In this document: in pieces, positions 1,550 through 7,475 of the stretch
Layout: every line of letters starts with the position of its first letter
Position numbering within the stretch: the stretch's first letter is position 1
Position numbers and translations under genes: made by a program
The notes under the pieces: generated by a model
The model's database searches: none
The model's input: the letters and a program-made list of their open reading frames with translations, nothing else
Told to the model about the DNA's origin: nothing
NCBI RefSeq assembly: GCF_964277405.1
Contig: NZ_OZ195521.1
Coordinates: 914,434-946,433 of the forward strand
Origin: Wolbachia endosymbiont of Cantharis cryptica
GTDB lineage: Bacteria; Pseudomonadota; Alphaproteobacteria; Rickettsiales; Anaplasmataceae
Length of the DNA: 32,000 nucleotides
Direction of reading: 5' to 3'

Positions 1550-2060
1550 TCTATCCTTGCCTCACTTTCGTTAGAGAAATTCTATCAGCAGGGTATCTTC
1601 GCTCTTCTGGTATTACCCAGTTTCTTTGCTACTACATACCCCTCCGCCATCTTCTCGTCTTCCATCTCTTTCCCATTTATGGTTATAAGATGTACCTTGC
1701 TCCAGTCATTTCTGCTCTGGGACGAGGAAGACTTCTCCAGTTGCTTTCATTTGTCCTTGTTACCATGCTGCCACTATCACCCCGCTAAGATCCAGTACTG
1801 TTCCATTCAGCTTTCAGTACTCGATTCTGCTTTCGCTGTTCTTCCACCAGCTCAGCTCTTAGGTTCTTTGGTGTGTCGAGGCTACCTATGTGTTCGCTTT
1901 CGCTGCGGCCTGATAACTCGCTCACCACCCTATAGATGGCTTTGTCAGTAGGCTTCAACATTTCTGGTTTCCCATTATGCTGCTCTCAAGCTATAGGGGT
2001 CTGACTTTTCCCCTAGCAGGTCTGTCTCCTGCTGAACAAATGTGCCTTGTCTGGACACAC
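1295..2060 (-). mobile_element. Group II intron 5' portion (ribozyme domains plus start of the intron-encoded RT), truncated by the IS3
   Basis: The minus strand begins GTGTGTCCAGACAAGGCACA at 2060 (GUGYG-type group II 5' end). About 510 nt of comparatively GC-rich, ORF-poor sequence follow, and the RT ORF starts at 1549. The sequence ends abruptly at the IS3 right IR (1294). Confidence 0.75.
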
Positions 2061-4074: not shown

Positions 4075-4272
4075 TTAAATACCATAAGGCATATAAAGCT
4101 TAACTATACGCGAGTCAGATTTACCAAGAATTGTCGTACCGCGCTGATTACGAATATTAGATTTGCTCCTCTTTATCATGCCATGCCTTTTGCCTGACTG
4201 AGTAGAAATGACTTTACCCTTAGCTGTAAGGCGAAAGCGCTTTTTAACAGAAGATTTGGTTTTCAATTTCAT
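4075..4272 (-). CDS. rpmI: 50S ribosomal protein L35
   Basis: [21 protein letters not shown]...; a small basic protein directly upstream of rplT. Confidence 0.9.
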
Positions 4273-4370
4273 TTTCTTTATATTCCAAACAAATTTACAA
4301 ACATTACTATCGAATTCTTTAGTAGTAATTAGTTAGTAGTATAAATAATTTTATTAAAGAATCAAATAGT

Positions 4371-4440
4371 ATGCAACCCACAAGTTGCAATATAACTATA
4401 ATATGCAACCTAAAACTGCAATACAACCTAAAATTGTATA
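4371..4440. repeat. Three tandem ~22-bp hairpin-forming units
   Basis: The units are ATGCAACCCACAAGTTGCAATA (4371-4392, containing TGCAAC/GTTGCA), ATGCAACCTAAAACTGCAATA (4403-4423) and CAACCTAAAATTGTATA (4424-4440, containing TACAA/TTGTA). Confidence 0.6.
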
Positions 4441-4499
4441 TCAAAGGAGATGATATGAATTGTTATTGCTTGGTTGGAAGCATGAGAAGATAATCACTT

Positions 4500-4670
4500 C
4501 TCAGAGTGGATAGGTGGCAGGTTGAATTTTTTTGTGAGGCCCCATTTTGCTTTATATACAATAATGGGATTAGACCTCGTAAAGGAGATTATCCGCCCCT
4601 GCCACCGGAAACCATCGTGCGGCCCATAAAATTTGGTGACCGCGTATAGGAGAATGGTCTAACCGGCAAT
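4500..4670 (+). ncRNA. Candidate IS110 bridge RNA (structured left-end leader)
   Basis: Outer stem GGTGGCAGG (4513-4521) / CCTGCCACC (4598-4606) nests GAGG (4536-4539)/CCTC (4575-4578) and CCCA (4541-4544)/TGGG (4565-4568). A second stem-loop pairs ACCAT (4611-4615)/ATGGT (4654-4658) and GCGG (4619-4622)/CCGC (4640-4643). The position upstream of the recombinase matches the IS110 group. Confidence 0.45.
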
Positions 4671-4714
4671 ATTCTACTCTGATATTTTGTAGTATTCAAT
4701 AAGAGGAAAAATTT

Positions 4715-5734
4715 ATGCGTCACATAGGTGTAGATTTACATACTAACAGTTTTACTGTTTGCTACTTAGAAACAGGAAAGCAAGAATATATTCGCACATT
4801 TCGCTTACAGGATTTGGACAATTTTGTCGAGAATCTTAAATCAGAAGATGAAATAGCTTTCGAAGCTACGGGTAACAGCTGTTTCTTTTATGATGCAGTT
4901 TCATCTTACGTTAAGCGCGTGGTGATAGTTGCACCCTGGCAATTTAAAGTGATTCGTCACTCTGTAAAGAAAACAGACAGGCATGATGCAAGAGCTATTG
5001 CTTTCTTTCTAAGCAAGGATATGTTGCCTGAAGCAAGATGTAAAAGCAAACAATGCCAGCAGTTAGCTTCTCTTCTTCGAACAAGAGAGCAGTTAGTAAA
5101 ATCACAAGTATCTCTAATTAATAAAATGCACGGTCTTTTTAATTATCATGGAATAAAAATTAAGAAGGAGACACTGATAACTAAAGCTGGATTTGAGCGT
5201 TCTATTCAAAAGCATAATTGGGACTATATAGAAAAGATAGAGATTGAAGTAATTAACTGTCAATTGGAAGCTATTCGAGAAAATCTCAAGAAGCTAAAAG
5301 AAGAAATTATTGCTTTTGCTAAACAACTTCCTGGGTTTAATAATATTATCAGTATTAAAGGTATTGGTGCAATTTCTGCAGCGGTTTTTATCACGACAAT
5401 TGGTGACATTAATGATTTTAGTAATCCTGAAAAACTTACTGCTTATTTCGGAGTTGTACCATCAGTTTCTCAATCTAATCAGCAATGTACTATTGGAAGA
5501 ATTACCAAACATGGGTCAAAAACGGCACGAACTTCTTTAGTACAGTGTACCTGGATTGCTATACGGTATAGCCCTTACTTAAGAAGTTTTTACGAGCATG
5601 TGAAAAAGAAGCGTGGTTCTGCTAAGGCTATTATTGCAACTGCTAGAAAGTTTCTAACAACAATTTTCTATACGCTTAAAAATAATTGGATTTTTGAAGA
5701 TTTCACAAAATTTGAATTTTCTATTGGACAATAA
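4715..5734 (+). CDS. IS110-family transposase (DEDD recombinase)
   Basis: 339-aa ORF MRHIGVDLHTNSFTVCYLE...FEATGNS...KTDRHDA...IKGIGAISAAVFITTIGDINDFSNPEKLTAYFGVVPSVSQSN...GRITKHGSKTAR, showing the typical IS110 N- and C-terminal domains. Confidence 0.9.
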   Translation: MRHIGVDLHTNSFTVCYLETGKQEYIRTFRLQDLDNFVENLKSEDEIAFEATGNSCFFYDAVSSYVKRVVIVAPWQFKVIRHSVKKTDRHDARAIAFFLSKDMLPEARCKSKQCQQLASLLRTREQLVKSQVSLINKMHGLFNYHGIKIKKETLITKAGFERSIQKHNWDYIEKIEIEVINCQLEAIRENLKKLKEEIIAFAKQLPGFNNIISIKGIGAISAAVFITTIGDINDFSNPEKLTAYFGVVPSVSQSNQQCTIGRITKHGSKTARTSLVQCTWIAIRYSPYLRSFYEHVKKKRGSAKAIIATARKFLTTIFYTLKNNWIFEDFTKFEFSIGQ

Positions 5735-5795
5735 TCGTGAAGGAAAATATGACACCTTAGTTTTTATAAGCTAATGAATAGACTTCTTTCAAAAT

Positions 5796-6236
5796 TCACG
5801 TAAGGAGCTCAAAATTGTGGATAGCAGCAATCAAATTAAATCTTAAACCAAAACGTTTTCGTCGGTTTCTATATCTATCGGAAATGATTTTAAACCTTTT
5901 TAATAAGCCAATTACGTTTTCAACAATTGCCCTTTGGCTCATAAGTGTTCTGTTCTCTTTTTTTTGTTCTTTGCTTAACGGATTCTTTTTCGTTTTCCTG
6001 TGAGGTAATACAACATTTTTATGTATTTTTTGCATTCCTCTGTAGCCGGCATCAGCTAAGATTTTAGTTTCCGGCAATATTGCTACCTTTGATTCCCTAA
6101 ATATCCGAAAATCGTGTTTCCTACCTTTCGAGAAAGATGTACATATTACTTTTTTACTCTTCTTCTCTGCTACTACTTGCGTTTTTATAGTATGCCTTTT
6201 TTTCTTTCCAGAGTAGAAGCATTTTTGCTTTTTTTT
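5796..6236 (-). CDS. IS5-family transposase, downstream -1 frame (DDE part), reachable by slippage in the A8 run
   Basis: The -1 frame reads ...KKKQKCFYSGKKKRHTIKTQVVVAEKK...ILADAGYRGMQKIH...RAIVENVIGLLKRFKIISDRYRNRRKRFGLRFNLIAAIHNFEL. It has no ATG of its own before MPETKIL (6077). Confidence 0.7.
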   Translation of the reverse strand, partial: KKKQKCFYSGKKKRHTIKTQVVAEKKSKKVICTSFSKGRKHDFRIFRESKVAILPETKILADAGYRGMQKIHKNVVLPHRKTKKNPLSKEQKKENRTLMSQRAIVENVIGLLKRFKIISDRYRNRRKRFGLRFNLIAAIHNFELLT

Positions 6237-6622
6237 GGCCTCTCTACTGGTGTTTCAGTTCCATCTATTACCAAAACTTCATATTCTACATTACCCTTTA
6301 ATAGCTCTTTTTTTCCCGGTAATGAAAAATCTGGATGTTTTATTAGCGTGTCTTCTACCCATCTTATTATTTTGAAACAGTTACTTTCACTCATGCCATA
6401 ACTTTGACCAATGTGGAAATACGTTCGATATTCCCTCATATATTCTAATGCCATAAGCAACCTATCTTCTACGCAAAGTTTGCTTTTTCTTCCACTTCTA
6501 GCTTTTTTTCTTTTATCCTCCTCATCCAAAATTTCCACCATTCGCTTAAATGTTCCCTTTTTTTCCCCTGTTAAGCGCCTAAATTTCTTTCCTTCCAACT
6601 TTTCTATTTCTTTATATCTCAT
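6185..6622 (-). CDS. IS5-family transposase, upstream frame (OrfA)
   Basis: MRYKEIEKLEGKKFRRLTGEKKGTFKRMVEILDEE...LVIDGTETPVERPKK...; A8 and A7 runs lie near its 3' end. Confidence 0.8.
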   Translation of the reverse strand: MRYKEIEKLEGKKFRRLTGEKKGTFKRMVEILDEEDKRKKARSGRKSKLCVEDRLLMALEYMREYRTYFHIGQSYGMSESNCFKIIRWVEDTLIKHPDFSLPGKKELLKGNVEYEVLVIDGTETPVERPKKSKNASTLERKKGIL

Positions 6623-6685
6623 ACCTTAAAATATCTGATTTTATACTTCTTTTCCCTTGTTTGCCAATTTTGAAAGAAGTCTAAT

Positions 6686-6741
6686 ATGTGCATAAGTACT
6701 TAAAATATGTGGGGACGTACTTACACACATATTCATTAGCT
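6686..6741. repeat. Long palindrome whose left arm was split by the IS5 insertion
   Basis: The right arm is GTACTTACACACATATTCATTAGCT (6717-6741). The left arm is AGCTAATGAAT (5769-5779) plus ATGTGCATAAGTAC (6686-6699). Once the IS and one AAT copy are removed, 23 of 25 positions pair. Confidence 0.7.
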
Positions 6742-6963
6742 ACATTAATTTAAAAAAGATTAATTAAAAGCTTAGTGTTTTTGTTGCCGATGAAACAACT
6801 TTTGATTGAATCAGATGGCATAGTAATAAATAAAAAATTGTATTAAAGCTGAATTTTATATCAGAAAATGTTTTGGGTAATACAAAAAATCATTATTGAC
6901 TTTTATGCAATTAGAGAACTGCTAGTCAATTCCTGACAACTACTTTTTATAACTTAAAAACAA

Positions 6964-7016
6964 CTGAATTTTTGAAGATTTTACAAAAATTTGAATTTTT
7001 TACTAGACAACAATCA
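6964..7016 (+). mobile_element. Remnant of the 3' end of a second IS110 copy
   Basis: CTGAATTTTTGAAGATTTTACAAAAATTTGAATTTTTTACTAGACAACAATCA is about 80% identical to 5690-5737, the last codons of the intact IS110 transposase (NWIFEDFTKFEFSIGQ). Confidence 0.5.
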
Positions 7017-7475
7017 TAGGAGCTTAAATGTAATTACGCCCAATATATGTGTTATACCTTCTTTATTCCCAAGTGGCAACAATACTTGCCTCATTTTAAC
7101 ACTTTCACTTTCTTCCTCTTCATGAATCGGGCACTTACTATCTACTACAGCATCAAGTTTATCAATAACTGCATCTATTTTATATAGTCGCAAAAATGGT
7201 GCATCAATTGCATATTTACTATCAATGCACATTTTTTTCTCAAAACCATAGAATTCAACAGCCTTTTCTCCTGCATTTTCACAAACATAACCCTGATCCT
7301 TGACTTCAATGACAAAACAGTGCTGCCATGACTCCATTATTTCAGCAGTGTCTATTTCGTGTCTTTCTGGCCAGTCTCTGTCTGATCCTTTTATGTCACT
7401 CCAGTGCTGAGTCACTACATTTGCTATTCTTCTTTCTTTGCCTGCATAAATTTCCATTCCAACGTCCACATACAA
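7014..7475 (-). CDS. Conserved hypothetical protein, probably a PAS-fold (PAS_5-like) protein of alphaproteobacteria
   Basis: The 153-aa ORF shows the pattern HWSDIKG..DWPERHEID.AEIM....HCFVIEV....YVCENAG.KAVEFYG...MRQVLLPLGNKEGITHILGVITF. From memory this resembles the alphaproteobacterial PAS_5 family. No HMM search was run. Confidence 0.45.
   Translation of the reverse strand: MYVDVGMEIYAGKERRIANVVTQHWSDIKGSDRDWPERHEIDTAEIMESWQHCFVIEVKDQGYVCENAGEKAVEFYGFEKKMCIDSKYAIDAPFLRLYKIDAVIDKLDAVVDSKCPIHEEEESESVKMRQVLLPLGNKEGITHILGVITFKLL

Follow-up and report, generated by a model that had tools for sequence, protein, structure and literature searches.

What does the non-coding leader in front of an IS110-family transposase gene do in a Wolbachia genome? 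The leader in question lies at positions 4441–4714 of the window, a stretch of 32,000 nucleotides from the Wolbachia endosymbiont of Cantharis cryptica (assembly GCF_964277405.1, contig NZ_OZ195521.1, positions 914,434 to 946,433 of the forward strand). The genome of the window, 1.39 Mb in one contig, is coded G000 here, and other genomes carry codes of the same kind (G049, G086 and so on). An initial annotation, made from the letters alone, had proposed that the leader is a two-loop bridge RNA of the kind that programs recombination; the RNA-guided mechanism is established for IS621, ISEc11 and ISEc21 (PMC11208160, PMC11208158, PMC11187229). We find that positions 4450–4714 are the left end of an ISWpi14-like insertion sequence (IS) of the IS110 family, and that this leader encodes, with a probability of roughly 0.88, a guide RNA (bridge RNA or seekRNA) of ~200 nt at ~4466–4670, which would spell out the element's ends as well as its target site. 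Covariation between guides and flanks, a match to the donor end and conserved stems bear out the bridge-RNA proposal. The IS621-type guide order assumed with it does not stand, the order here being the opposite one, as in IS1111-type seekRNAs (PMC11187229).

Borders of the element and fold of its leader

Four copies of the element are present in G000 and are 100% identical over their shared sequence. Alignment of their flanks showed that the element spans 4450–7022. The left border falls just after (A/T)AGGAG, leftward of which the copies diverge, and the left end begins at 4450 with ATGATATGAA...; at the other side, all four copies are shared up to ...CATAGGAG and divergent beyond, with the right border ...CAATCATAGGAG at 7022. 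The dinucleotide AG is the sole sequence common to both junctions in every variant: left flanks ending in TTTAG, GGAAG or CCCAG coexist with the same right end, AG alone being shared. We therefore take AG (4448–4449 and 7021–7022) as the crossover core. The borders were confirmed by an empty site in a contig of run X1, from another strain, in which 4429–4449, with the change C4442T, is joined straight to 7023 (TAAAGG-AG/CTTAAATG); the element thus inserted without duplication beyond the core. This contig comes from one of four public runs examined, all of which consist of contigs. A set of REP-like units at 4371–4440 was considered as the target and rejected, as the left flanks of the other three copies are unrelated to it and the empty-site contig is without most of the array.

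The leader has the general properties that the initial annotation gave it. It contains no open reading frame (ORF) of at least 50 aa, its G+C content (0.39–0.47) exceeds that of the sequence on either side (0.21–0.33), it stands directly upstream of the IS110-family transposase ORF (4715–5734), and every stem named in the annotation is present in the sequence where it was placed. The whole 274-nt stretch folds at z = -2.15 relative to shuffles; for the 205-nt core (4466–4670) the value is z = -3.56, with none of 200 shuffles as stable.

Of 59 other genomes of the genus, 22 have leader homologues with 68–91% identity; a set of 38 genomes representing twelve further genera of the family has none. 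Sixteen distinct leader variants from 13 Wolbachia genomes were aligned (alignment A1) and the structure was derived with RNAalifold. Counted in that same alignment, 98.1% of cells in the consensus structure were paired, compared with 36–48% when the partners were slid; six pairs changed on both sides, and none of 500 shuffles reached the covariation score. The long-range helix P1 that closes the structure (Table 1) was 96% paired in the 16 Wolbachia variants and also formed in the single-sequence minimum-free-energy fold. From this model, the predicted RNA would probably start just upstream of 4466, with its 3′ border ~200 nt on.

Inside P1, the helices differ in how well they are kept. The outer stem of the first loop (4513–4520/4599–4606) is retained in 15–16 of the 16 leaders, and so are GAGG/CCTC (4536–39/4575–78), with compensatory GAAG/CTTC, and GCGG/CCGC (4619–22/4640–43), with a compensatory change from C-G to A-U. 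The hairpin of the donor module has nine pairs, of which three change on both sides among the Wolbachia variants (C-G to A-U once, C-G to U-A twice). A 3-bp helix, CAU 4481–83 with AUG 4654–56, becomes CAA/UUG in six variants. Two of the stems named in the initial annotation fared less well. ACCAT/ATGGT (4611–15/4654–58), supposed to close the second loop, is not conserved, its end pairs forming in 1 and 6 of 16 variants; CCCA/TGGG is present in G000 and its nearest variant, while the other variants form a different distal hairpin. Downstream of P1, a hairpin over the ribosome-binding site of the transposase gene (RNAalifold helices 9 and 10) was 97–100% paired, with one-sided changes only, and may limit translation.

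The architecture extends beyond the genus. Transposases with 47–54% identity were found on a Tardibacter plasmid (L081) and, among 400 alphaproteobacterial genomes sampled, in 3, one of these sequences being a fragment. The relatives' leaders share the same architecture despite wide differences in sequence: 16 of 44 consensus pairs are compensatory, five of them in P1, where both sides change, and the Tardibacter homologue has a stem-loop at the same place as the 5′ hairpin at 4484–4502.

Probable guides for the target site and the element ends

The most variable columns of the leader are those of the two target guides, with an entropy of 1.1–1.2 bits, compared with 0.06 in the closing stem, 0.14–0.16 in the donor guides and 0.33 in the leader overall. 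The 5′ guide, at 4525–4535 (AAUUUUUUU and then GU; seven bases followed by C/G-U), is complementary to the top strand over the core and right target. The 3′ guide, at 4579–4589 (G4579, UAAAGG at 4580–85, AG at 4586–87 and AU at 4588–89), runs in the same sense as the left flank followed by the core and the two opening bases of the left end.

If these segments are guides, each variant should carry the flanks of its own insertions, and this was observed. Across 10 guide classes and 26 independent sites, the left flank gave 121 of 156 identities against 63±13, a value reached by 0 of 50,000 permutations, and the right flank gave 78 of 114 pairs against 58±6, reached by 35 of 50,000. Class means, used against pseudo-replication, were reached by 1 (left) and 14 (right) of 50,000 permutations. 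The initial expectation that the loops specify the insertion site thus held for the first loop, the two strands of which covary, variant by variant, with the flanks to the left and right of that variant's insertions.

Individual variants make the pattern visible. The 3′ guide of G086, TTGGGAAG, equals its left flank, TTGGGAAG, at 8/8 positions, and the reverse complement of its 5′ guide, AGACAAATA, stands against AG-ACAAATA, a 7/7 match with the CU core pair. Matches of 7/7 on the right were likewise found for G095 (3′ guide TTACCGAG, left flank CTACCGAG), for G091 (3′ guide TTACTCAG, left flank TTACCCAG) and for copy D of G000, which matches on the left at 9/9. Two further variants, known from public runs only, show the same agreement with their own left flanks (UUGUCGAG and TTGTCGAG in X1; UAUGGAG and TATGGAG in X5), and outside Wolbachia the 3′ target guide UGAAGGAG equals the left flank at 8/8 positions in G466 and 7/8 in Tardibacter. 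The window's copy is among several insertions that match on the left flank only; its left score is 7/8, or 8/8 against the empty allele. Such cases agree with the half-match recombination described in two recent preprints (10.64898/2026.08.31.748434, 10.64898/2026.08.14.744561).

One orthologous site, upstream of the same gene (MSCITEQNNLGD...), carries two guide variants: L034 (from G049) on the one hand and L035/L036 (from G082 and G039) on the other. Each right-target guide fits its own version of the site, which reads AAAAATTT in one and AAACATTT in the other; the two may be independent insertions, or guide and site may have diverged together in place.

The donor guides vary far less than the target guides. 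UAUAGG+AG does not change among the full-length variants, and its AUAGGAG recurs as the right end and core of every element, those of the three relatives outside Wolbachia included. The initial claim that the loops specify the element ends is borne out by the constant UAUAGGAG, which equals the right end plus core. The donor-binding nucleotides do not lie in a loop closed by ACCAT/ATGGT. The donor guides are found instead in a multiloop closed by the long-range helix 4466–4477/4659–4669.

For the opposite end, the assignment of a guide is tentative. The candidate segment ACCAUC (4611–4616) pairs with GATGGT, which is the core G plus the start of the left end in most variants. The sole compensatory event is in Tardibacter, where CCAU has become CCAG and the left end ATGG has become CTGG. 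The 3′ target guide of this relative has CU instead of AU as the two bases after the core, which thus track the left end, changed from AT to CT; such tracking is the behaviour of a handshake guide (PMC11208158). The bases after the left-donor guide (AA, UU or GU) were also tried as handshake bases and rejected. They do not track the right flanks, and their covariation with CAU/CAA at 4481–4483 indicates that they form a helix.

Both ends of the element also carry parts of a promoter-like motif. On the left, a -10-like TATGAA (4454–4459) has TGn just before it; on the right, a -35-like TAGACA (7004–7009) is accompanied by a sub-terminal repeat AACAATCATA, the left-donor CATAGG (7015–7020) and the core AG. 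The sub-terminal inverted repeat of the left end, TATGAATTGTT at 4454–4464, pairs with the right end by inspection of the sequences (TATGAATTGTT versus TATGA-TTGTT, the reverse complement of the right end; ~12–13 nt with one indel). Joining the right end (RE) to the left end (LE) gave T(T/A/G)GACA, then a 17-nt spacer and TGnTATGAA, identically placed in 11 of 11 distinct junctions, with scores of 9–10 of 12. Assessed as a sequence motif, this appears to be the circle-junction promoter known for the family.

Taken together, these observations are consistent with the following cycle, of which we infer transcription, binding of the RNA by the enzyme and catalysis. The excised element would circularise, and the junction of the right end (-35 TAGACA) with the left end (-10 TATGAA) would create a promoter for the RNA and then the transposase gene. 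The RNA would fold into the long-range closing helix, the 5′ hairpin, the target-binding module and the donor hairpin. For the G000 variant, the ideal site would be GTAAAGG-AG-AAAAAAA. ACCAUC would probably pair with the left end, and the DEDD/Ser recombinase would exchange strands at the shared AG, leaving no target duplication.

Alternative readings and known systems

Several points weigh against a guide RNA at this locus. Supplementary Table 5 of Durrant records for ISWpi14 no bridge-RNA end and no group (PMC11208160). Rfam 15 gives the leader no match, with chance-level hits only in 4250–5900 at E up to 10; among runs recorded as RNA, none was found to contain 4450–5780; and in the integrated state there is no plus-strand promoter-like site in 4300–4800. 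The structure was derived from the alignment on which its pairs were counted, among sequences that are kin by descent, and because the variants are related in this way the guide classes are not fully independent either. Pairing with the right flank is poor in two of the four G000 copies, including the window's copy (3/7). As for the candidate right-donor guide, the left end of G000 reads ATGAT and leaves one mismatch with it, and four degenerate variants are without the segment.

Could the leader be simply a cis-regulatory 5′ untranslated region, structured to limit translation of the transposase or to stabilise its messenger RNA? The conserved hairpin that sequesters the ribosome-binding site (4677–4680/4702–4705) would suit such a role, and no leader RNA species is on record. 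We consider this very improbable nonetheless, as it explains neither why hypervariable loop strands track their own flanks on opposite DNA strands nor why a segment copies the right end of the element. A second reading places the function in the DNA: the matching segments would duplicate the ends and the preferred site inside the element, either to give the transposase additional binding sites or as recombination footprints. Here the guide segments are identical to DNA junctions (left target, core and right donor; left donor and core), so that sequence alone cannot tell RNA pairing from DNA pairing. What speaks for RNA is that compensatory changes keep the flanking helices, in Wolbachia and in relatives of ~50% identity, which argues for selection on a folded transcript; moreover, a binding-site model does not predict a 5′ strand antisense to the right flank, and the RNA mechanism of the family has been shown experimentally (PMC11208160, PMC11187229). 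A role as DNA is to our mind no more credible than the regulatory one. The least credible reading is a canonical IS621-type bridge RNA, with the left-target and left-donor guides 5′ in two simple internal loops. The RNA's placement upstream of the transposase gene, in the left end, is the IS110-group one (PMC11208160) and fits this reading, which is contradicted by the guide order, with the same-sense guides for left target and left donor on the 3′ side; four copies and an empty site argue against an error in orientation or borders. The donor guides in a multiloop, the unconserved ACCAT/ATGGT stem and the sub-terminal inverted repeat of 12–13 nt also speak against it, as does a transposase that aligns over its full length with that of ISEc11 (IS1111 family) and only C-terminally with that of IS621.

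A different question is whether the RNA gene is real for the family while the element is immobile in G000 and the window's copy a fossil. This is unlikely, if far from negligible. Nested insertions are present in three of the four copies: the window's own copy in its 3′ non-coding part, copy C (G000:C1:38990-39849), with an 860-bp insertion in the 3′ closing helix of the guide RNA (equivalent to window 4658–4662, with 5 bp duplicated) and copy D (1191177-1192077), whose transposase gene holds an insertion of ~901 bp (equivalent to window 5344–5348). The left end mismatches the candidate right-donor guide, as said, and the genome retains no perfect free target and one site with a single mismatch. 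Against decay, the complete identity of the four copies over their shared sequence indicates recent movement, copy B (G000:C1:613936-615602, 1667 bp) is fully intact and without a nested IS5/IS4-type element, and three transposase ORFs are open and identical.

How does this RNA compare with those described? In IS621, with core CT, each loop has its same-sense guide (left target or left donor) on the 5′ side (PMC11208160, PMC11208158), and ISEc21, of the IS110 family, has the same guide order. In IS1111 seekRNAs, the match to the top strand is 5′ of that to the bottom strand, the RNA being downstream of the transposase gene (PMC11187229); donor guides are in a multiloop in many IS1111 members (Durrant, PMC11208160). 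The Wolbachia element resembles IS621 in that its left end holds the RNA, upstream of a DEDD/Ser recombinase, with a promoter motif rebuilt at the RE-LE junction; in the succession of 5′ hairpin, target module and donor module; and in the lack of a target duplication. As in IS621, each module would have one same-sense and one antisense guide, both reaching into the core dinucleotide; at the RNA level the guides end in CU (5′) and AG (3′); and the 3′ target guide continues past the core with two bases that match the donor in a handshake-like manner. It differs from IS621 in its reversed guide order, the 5′ strand here pairing to the right flank's top strand; in its core, AG on the transposase strand versus CT; in its donor guides, placed in a multiloop under a long-range helix; in its 12–13-nt sub-terminal repeat; and in its distant protein.

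The comparison with the two groups is correspondingly mixed. Unlike the IS110 group (IS621 and ISEc21), the element has its same-sense guides 3′ (4579–4589 and 4645–4652) and its antisense guide 5′ (4525–4535), and its sub-terminal repeat of ~12 nt contrasts with the 2–3 bp of that group, whereas the upstream position of the RNA fits. It shares with the IS1111 group (ISEc11, ISPa11 and ISKpn4; PMC11187229) the guide order and donor nucleotides in a multiloop; the repeat is within the 7–17 bp of that group, and the transposase of 339 aa is close to its ~330–350 aa. Unlike those members, in which the RNA is in the right end downstream of the ORF, it has its RNA (4466–4670) in the left end upstream. 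Since the core is AG on the transposase strand, versus CT in IS621, the guide order appears reversed and of IS1111 type. Read on the strand with the CT core, the predicted RNA layout is that of IS621: N7-CU in the 5′ guide, and N-AG plus two handshake-like bases in the 3′ guide. The layout being the same, we infer that the difference lies in how the RNA-transposase cassette is oriented with respect to the crossover site.

For the protein, the NCBIfam model NF033542 ('IS110 family RNA-guided transposase') matches with 241 bits (cut-off 140). Alignment with the ISEc11 transposase extends over the full length (24% identity, E = 4e-22), and that with IS621 (PDB 8wt6) is limited to the C-terminal domain (E = 1.5e-4); its affinity to IS110 or IS1111 was judged from the pairwise comparison with ISEc11 and a search of PDB. 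A conserved motif reads GV-P----SN, versus GL-P----S(T)G in the IS1111 family. The transposase was assigned to the ISWpi14 type by eye, at about four-fifths identity to the sequence in the supplements of PMC11208160 and PMC11187229.

ISWpi14 itself has an ISfinder entry (Cerveau 2011, PMC3205602). In Supplementary Table 5 of Durrant (PMC11208160), ISMch4, listed next to ISWpi14, is placed in the IS1111 group with no detected bridge-RNA end, and ISHvo9 is placed in the IS1111 group with a bridge RNA detected in the left end. A left-end RNA combined with IS1111 affinity is thus hinted at in the table entry for ISHvo9, without description. ISMch4 and ISHvo9/10 are deep-branching neighbours of ISWpi14, and the G000 variant adds a 3′ extension of ~380 nt. 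In the literature searched, we found no report linking Wolbachia with bridge RNA, and a single one in which ISWpi14 appears.

The insertion sites suggest where such guides were originally aimed. In each of the three relatives outside Wolbachia, the element lies between a Shine-Dalgarno sequence and a start codon; the same holds for three Wolbachia insertions, which are upstream of two genes (Table 1). At these sites the right end, ...ATAGGAG, restores AGGAG at its original spacing before the downstream gene. It is possible, though somewhat less than an even bet, that ISWpi14-like elements have a distinct, undescribed arrangement: IS621-like guide chemistry (5′ N7-CU; 3′ N6-AG plus a handshake-like pair) at the end that is opposite in the polarity of the crossover site, with an ancestral guide, UGAAGGAG, aimed at the Shine-Dalgarno sequence (GAAGGAG) and a right end that puts the ribosome-binding site back. 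Among relatives of ~30% identity (from Rhizobium, Comamonas, Paraburkholderia and Leisingera), whose element borders are undefined, a k-mer comparison upstream and downstream was uninformative.

Features of the locus and meaning for the family

Table 1. Coordinates of the features of the ISWpi14-like element in the window, with the loci at which related insertions separate a ribosome-binding site from its start codon.
Feature	Position	Strand	Basis or content
Left target flank ATCAAAGG with left core AG (4448–4449)	4440–4449	+	Copy divergence; the empty site reads TAAAGGAG (C4442T)
IS left end	4450–4465	+	Right-donor bases ATGATATG, TATGAA, sub-terminal inverted repeat
5′ strand of long-range closing helix P1 (UUGC-U-UGGUUGG)	4466–4477	+	Pairs with 4659–4669
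5′ stem-loop (GAGAAG/CUUCUC)	4484–4502	+	99% of cells paired in A1
Target-binding module	4513–4606	+	Closing stem, 5′ guide, inner stem-loop 4536–4578, 3′ guide
Candidate right-donor guide ACCAUCGU	4611–4618	+	Complementary to GATGGT
Donor-module hairpin GUGCGGCCCA ... UGGUGACCGCG	4618–4644	+	Kept in distant relatives
Left-donor guide UAUAGG and core AG (4645–4652), then AUG (4654–4656)	4645–4657	+	Same sense as right end CATAGG+AG
3′ strand of P1 (CUAACC-G-GCAA)	4659–4669	+	Probable 3′ border of the guide RNA
Hairpin over the transposase ribosome-binding site	4677–4705	+	CUCU 4677–4680 with AGAG 4702–4705
Transposase (bridge recombinase), 339 aa, ISWpi14-like	4715–5734	+	Pfam PF01548 (DEDD_Tnp_IS110), PF02371 (Transposase_20)
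First part of the 3′ non-coding extension (~380 nt in total)	5735–5780	+	Comparison of variants
Nested 906-bp IS5/IS4-type element	5781–6686	-	Pfam DDE_Tnp_4, HTH_Tnp_4; foreign to the IS110 unit
Rest of the 3′ extension and true right end	6687–7022	+	Four-copy alignment; empty-site contig
Loci between ribosome-binding site and start codon	L081 1940–1960; L090 ~2600–2640; L091 (reverse complement); G000:C1:615603; L034, L035 right flanks		

The 3′ part of the element is composite. A degenerate inner sequence resembling a right end, ...AATAATCGTGAAGG/AAAATATG, lies across the transposase stop (~5728–5741); it is followed by ~230 nt with a 25-bp palindrome and then by an 81% copy of the 3′ end of the transposase gene (~6917–7015) with the working right end. 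The nested element interrupts this region in the window, and a contig of run X10 joins 5776 to 6683. The extension is confined to the G000, G095 and G050 variants; the rest stop at the inner position and have a length of ~1.29 kb. Within the 3′ non-coding region there is no similarity to the leader and no Rfam match. The extension looks like an element that adopted the downstream end of a second, decayed copy and kept the DNA between; growth of IS110 loci through repeated insertions is described in a preprint (10.64898/2026.08.14.744561).

Side observations were made at the element's ends and at partial copies. A convergent ORF of 153 aa on the minus strand (7014–7475) has its TGA stop at 7014–7016, inside the IS110 right end, so that the insertion supplies the stop codon and replaces the original C-terminus; in the empty-site allele of run X1, the frame would run on into different sequence. 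L069 (G090) has the right end ...CATAGAAG instead of ...CATAGGAG, with the left flank ...GGGGAAG; the base left of the core appears to be taken from the target side, which could bear on the position of strand exchange. Solo copies of the first 40–75 nt of the leader occur at G000:C1:588015-588077 and 1117056-1117096 and at loci L046 and L048–L051, and many further Wolbachia genomes carry them as well. They extend from the left end as far as GGAUAGG, with unrelated sequence beyond; deletion remnants are one possible origin, pieces of a different element another. Six copies in G050 (L058, L061–L065) match L038 at 100% identity as far as position 1106, where all diverge, which suggests that a nested element or a rearranged form itself multiplied. 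Elsewhere in the window, the sole Rfam 15 match at the gathering score is group II intron domain 1-4 (RF02003; 105 bits, 1898–2034, minus strand).

The mechanism itself is known. As far as we found, guides, targets and core have been worked out here for the first time for the ISWpi14 lineage, so that a lineage with neither a group nor a detected bridge RNA in the reference survey now has a putative RNA, a core, guides and targets. RNA-guided recombinases of the IS110 family are under development as genome-writing tools, and their diversity has been mapped mainly through IS621 and a few IS1111 members. The combination of an IS1111-type guide order with a left-end RNA would mean that guide order and RNA position are separable. 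At least 10 guide classes in one genus, each in its own matching sites, amount to a natural reprogramming series, and the matches on one flank only bear on the reports of half-match recombination. For Wolbachia genomics, the guides would explain where these elements land, and the element borders are corrected, with the right end at 7022, beyond the transposase stop.

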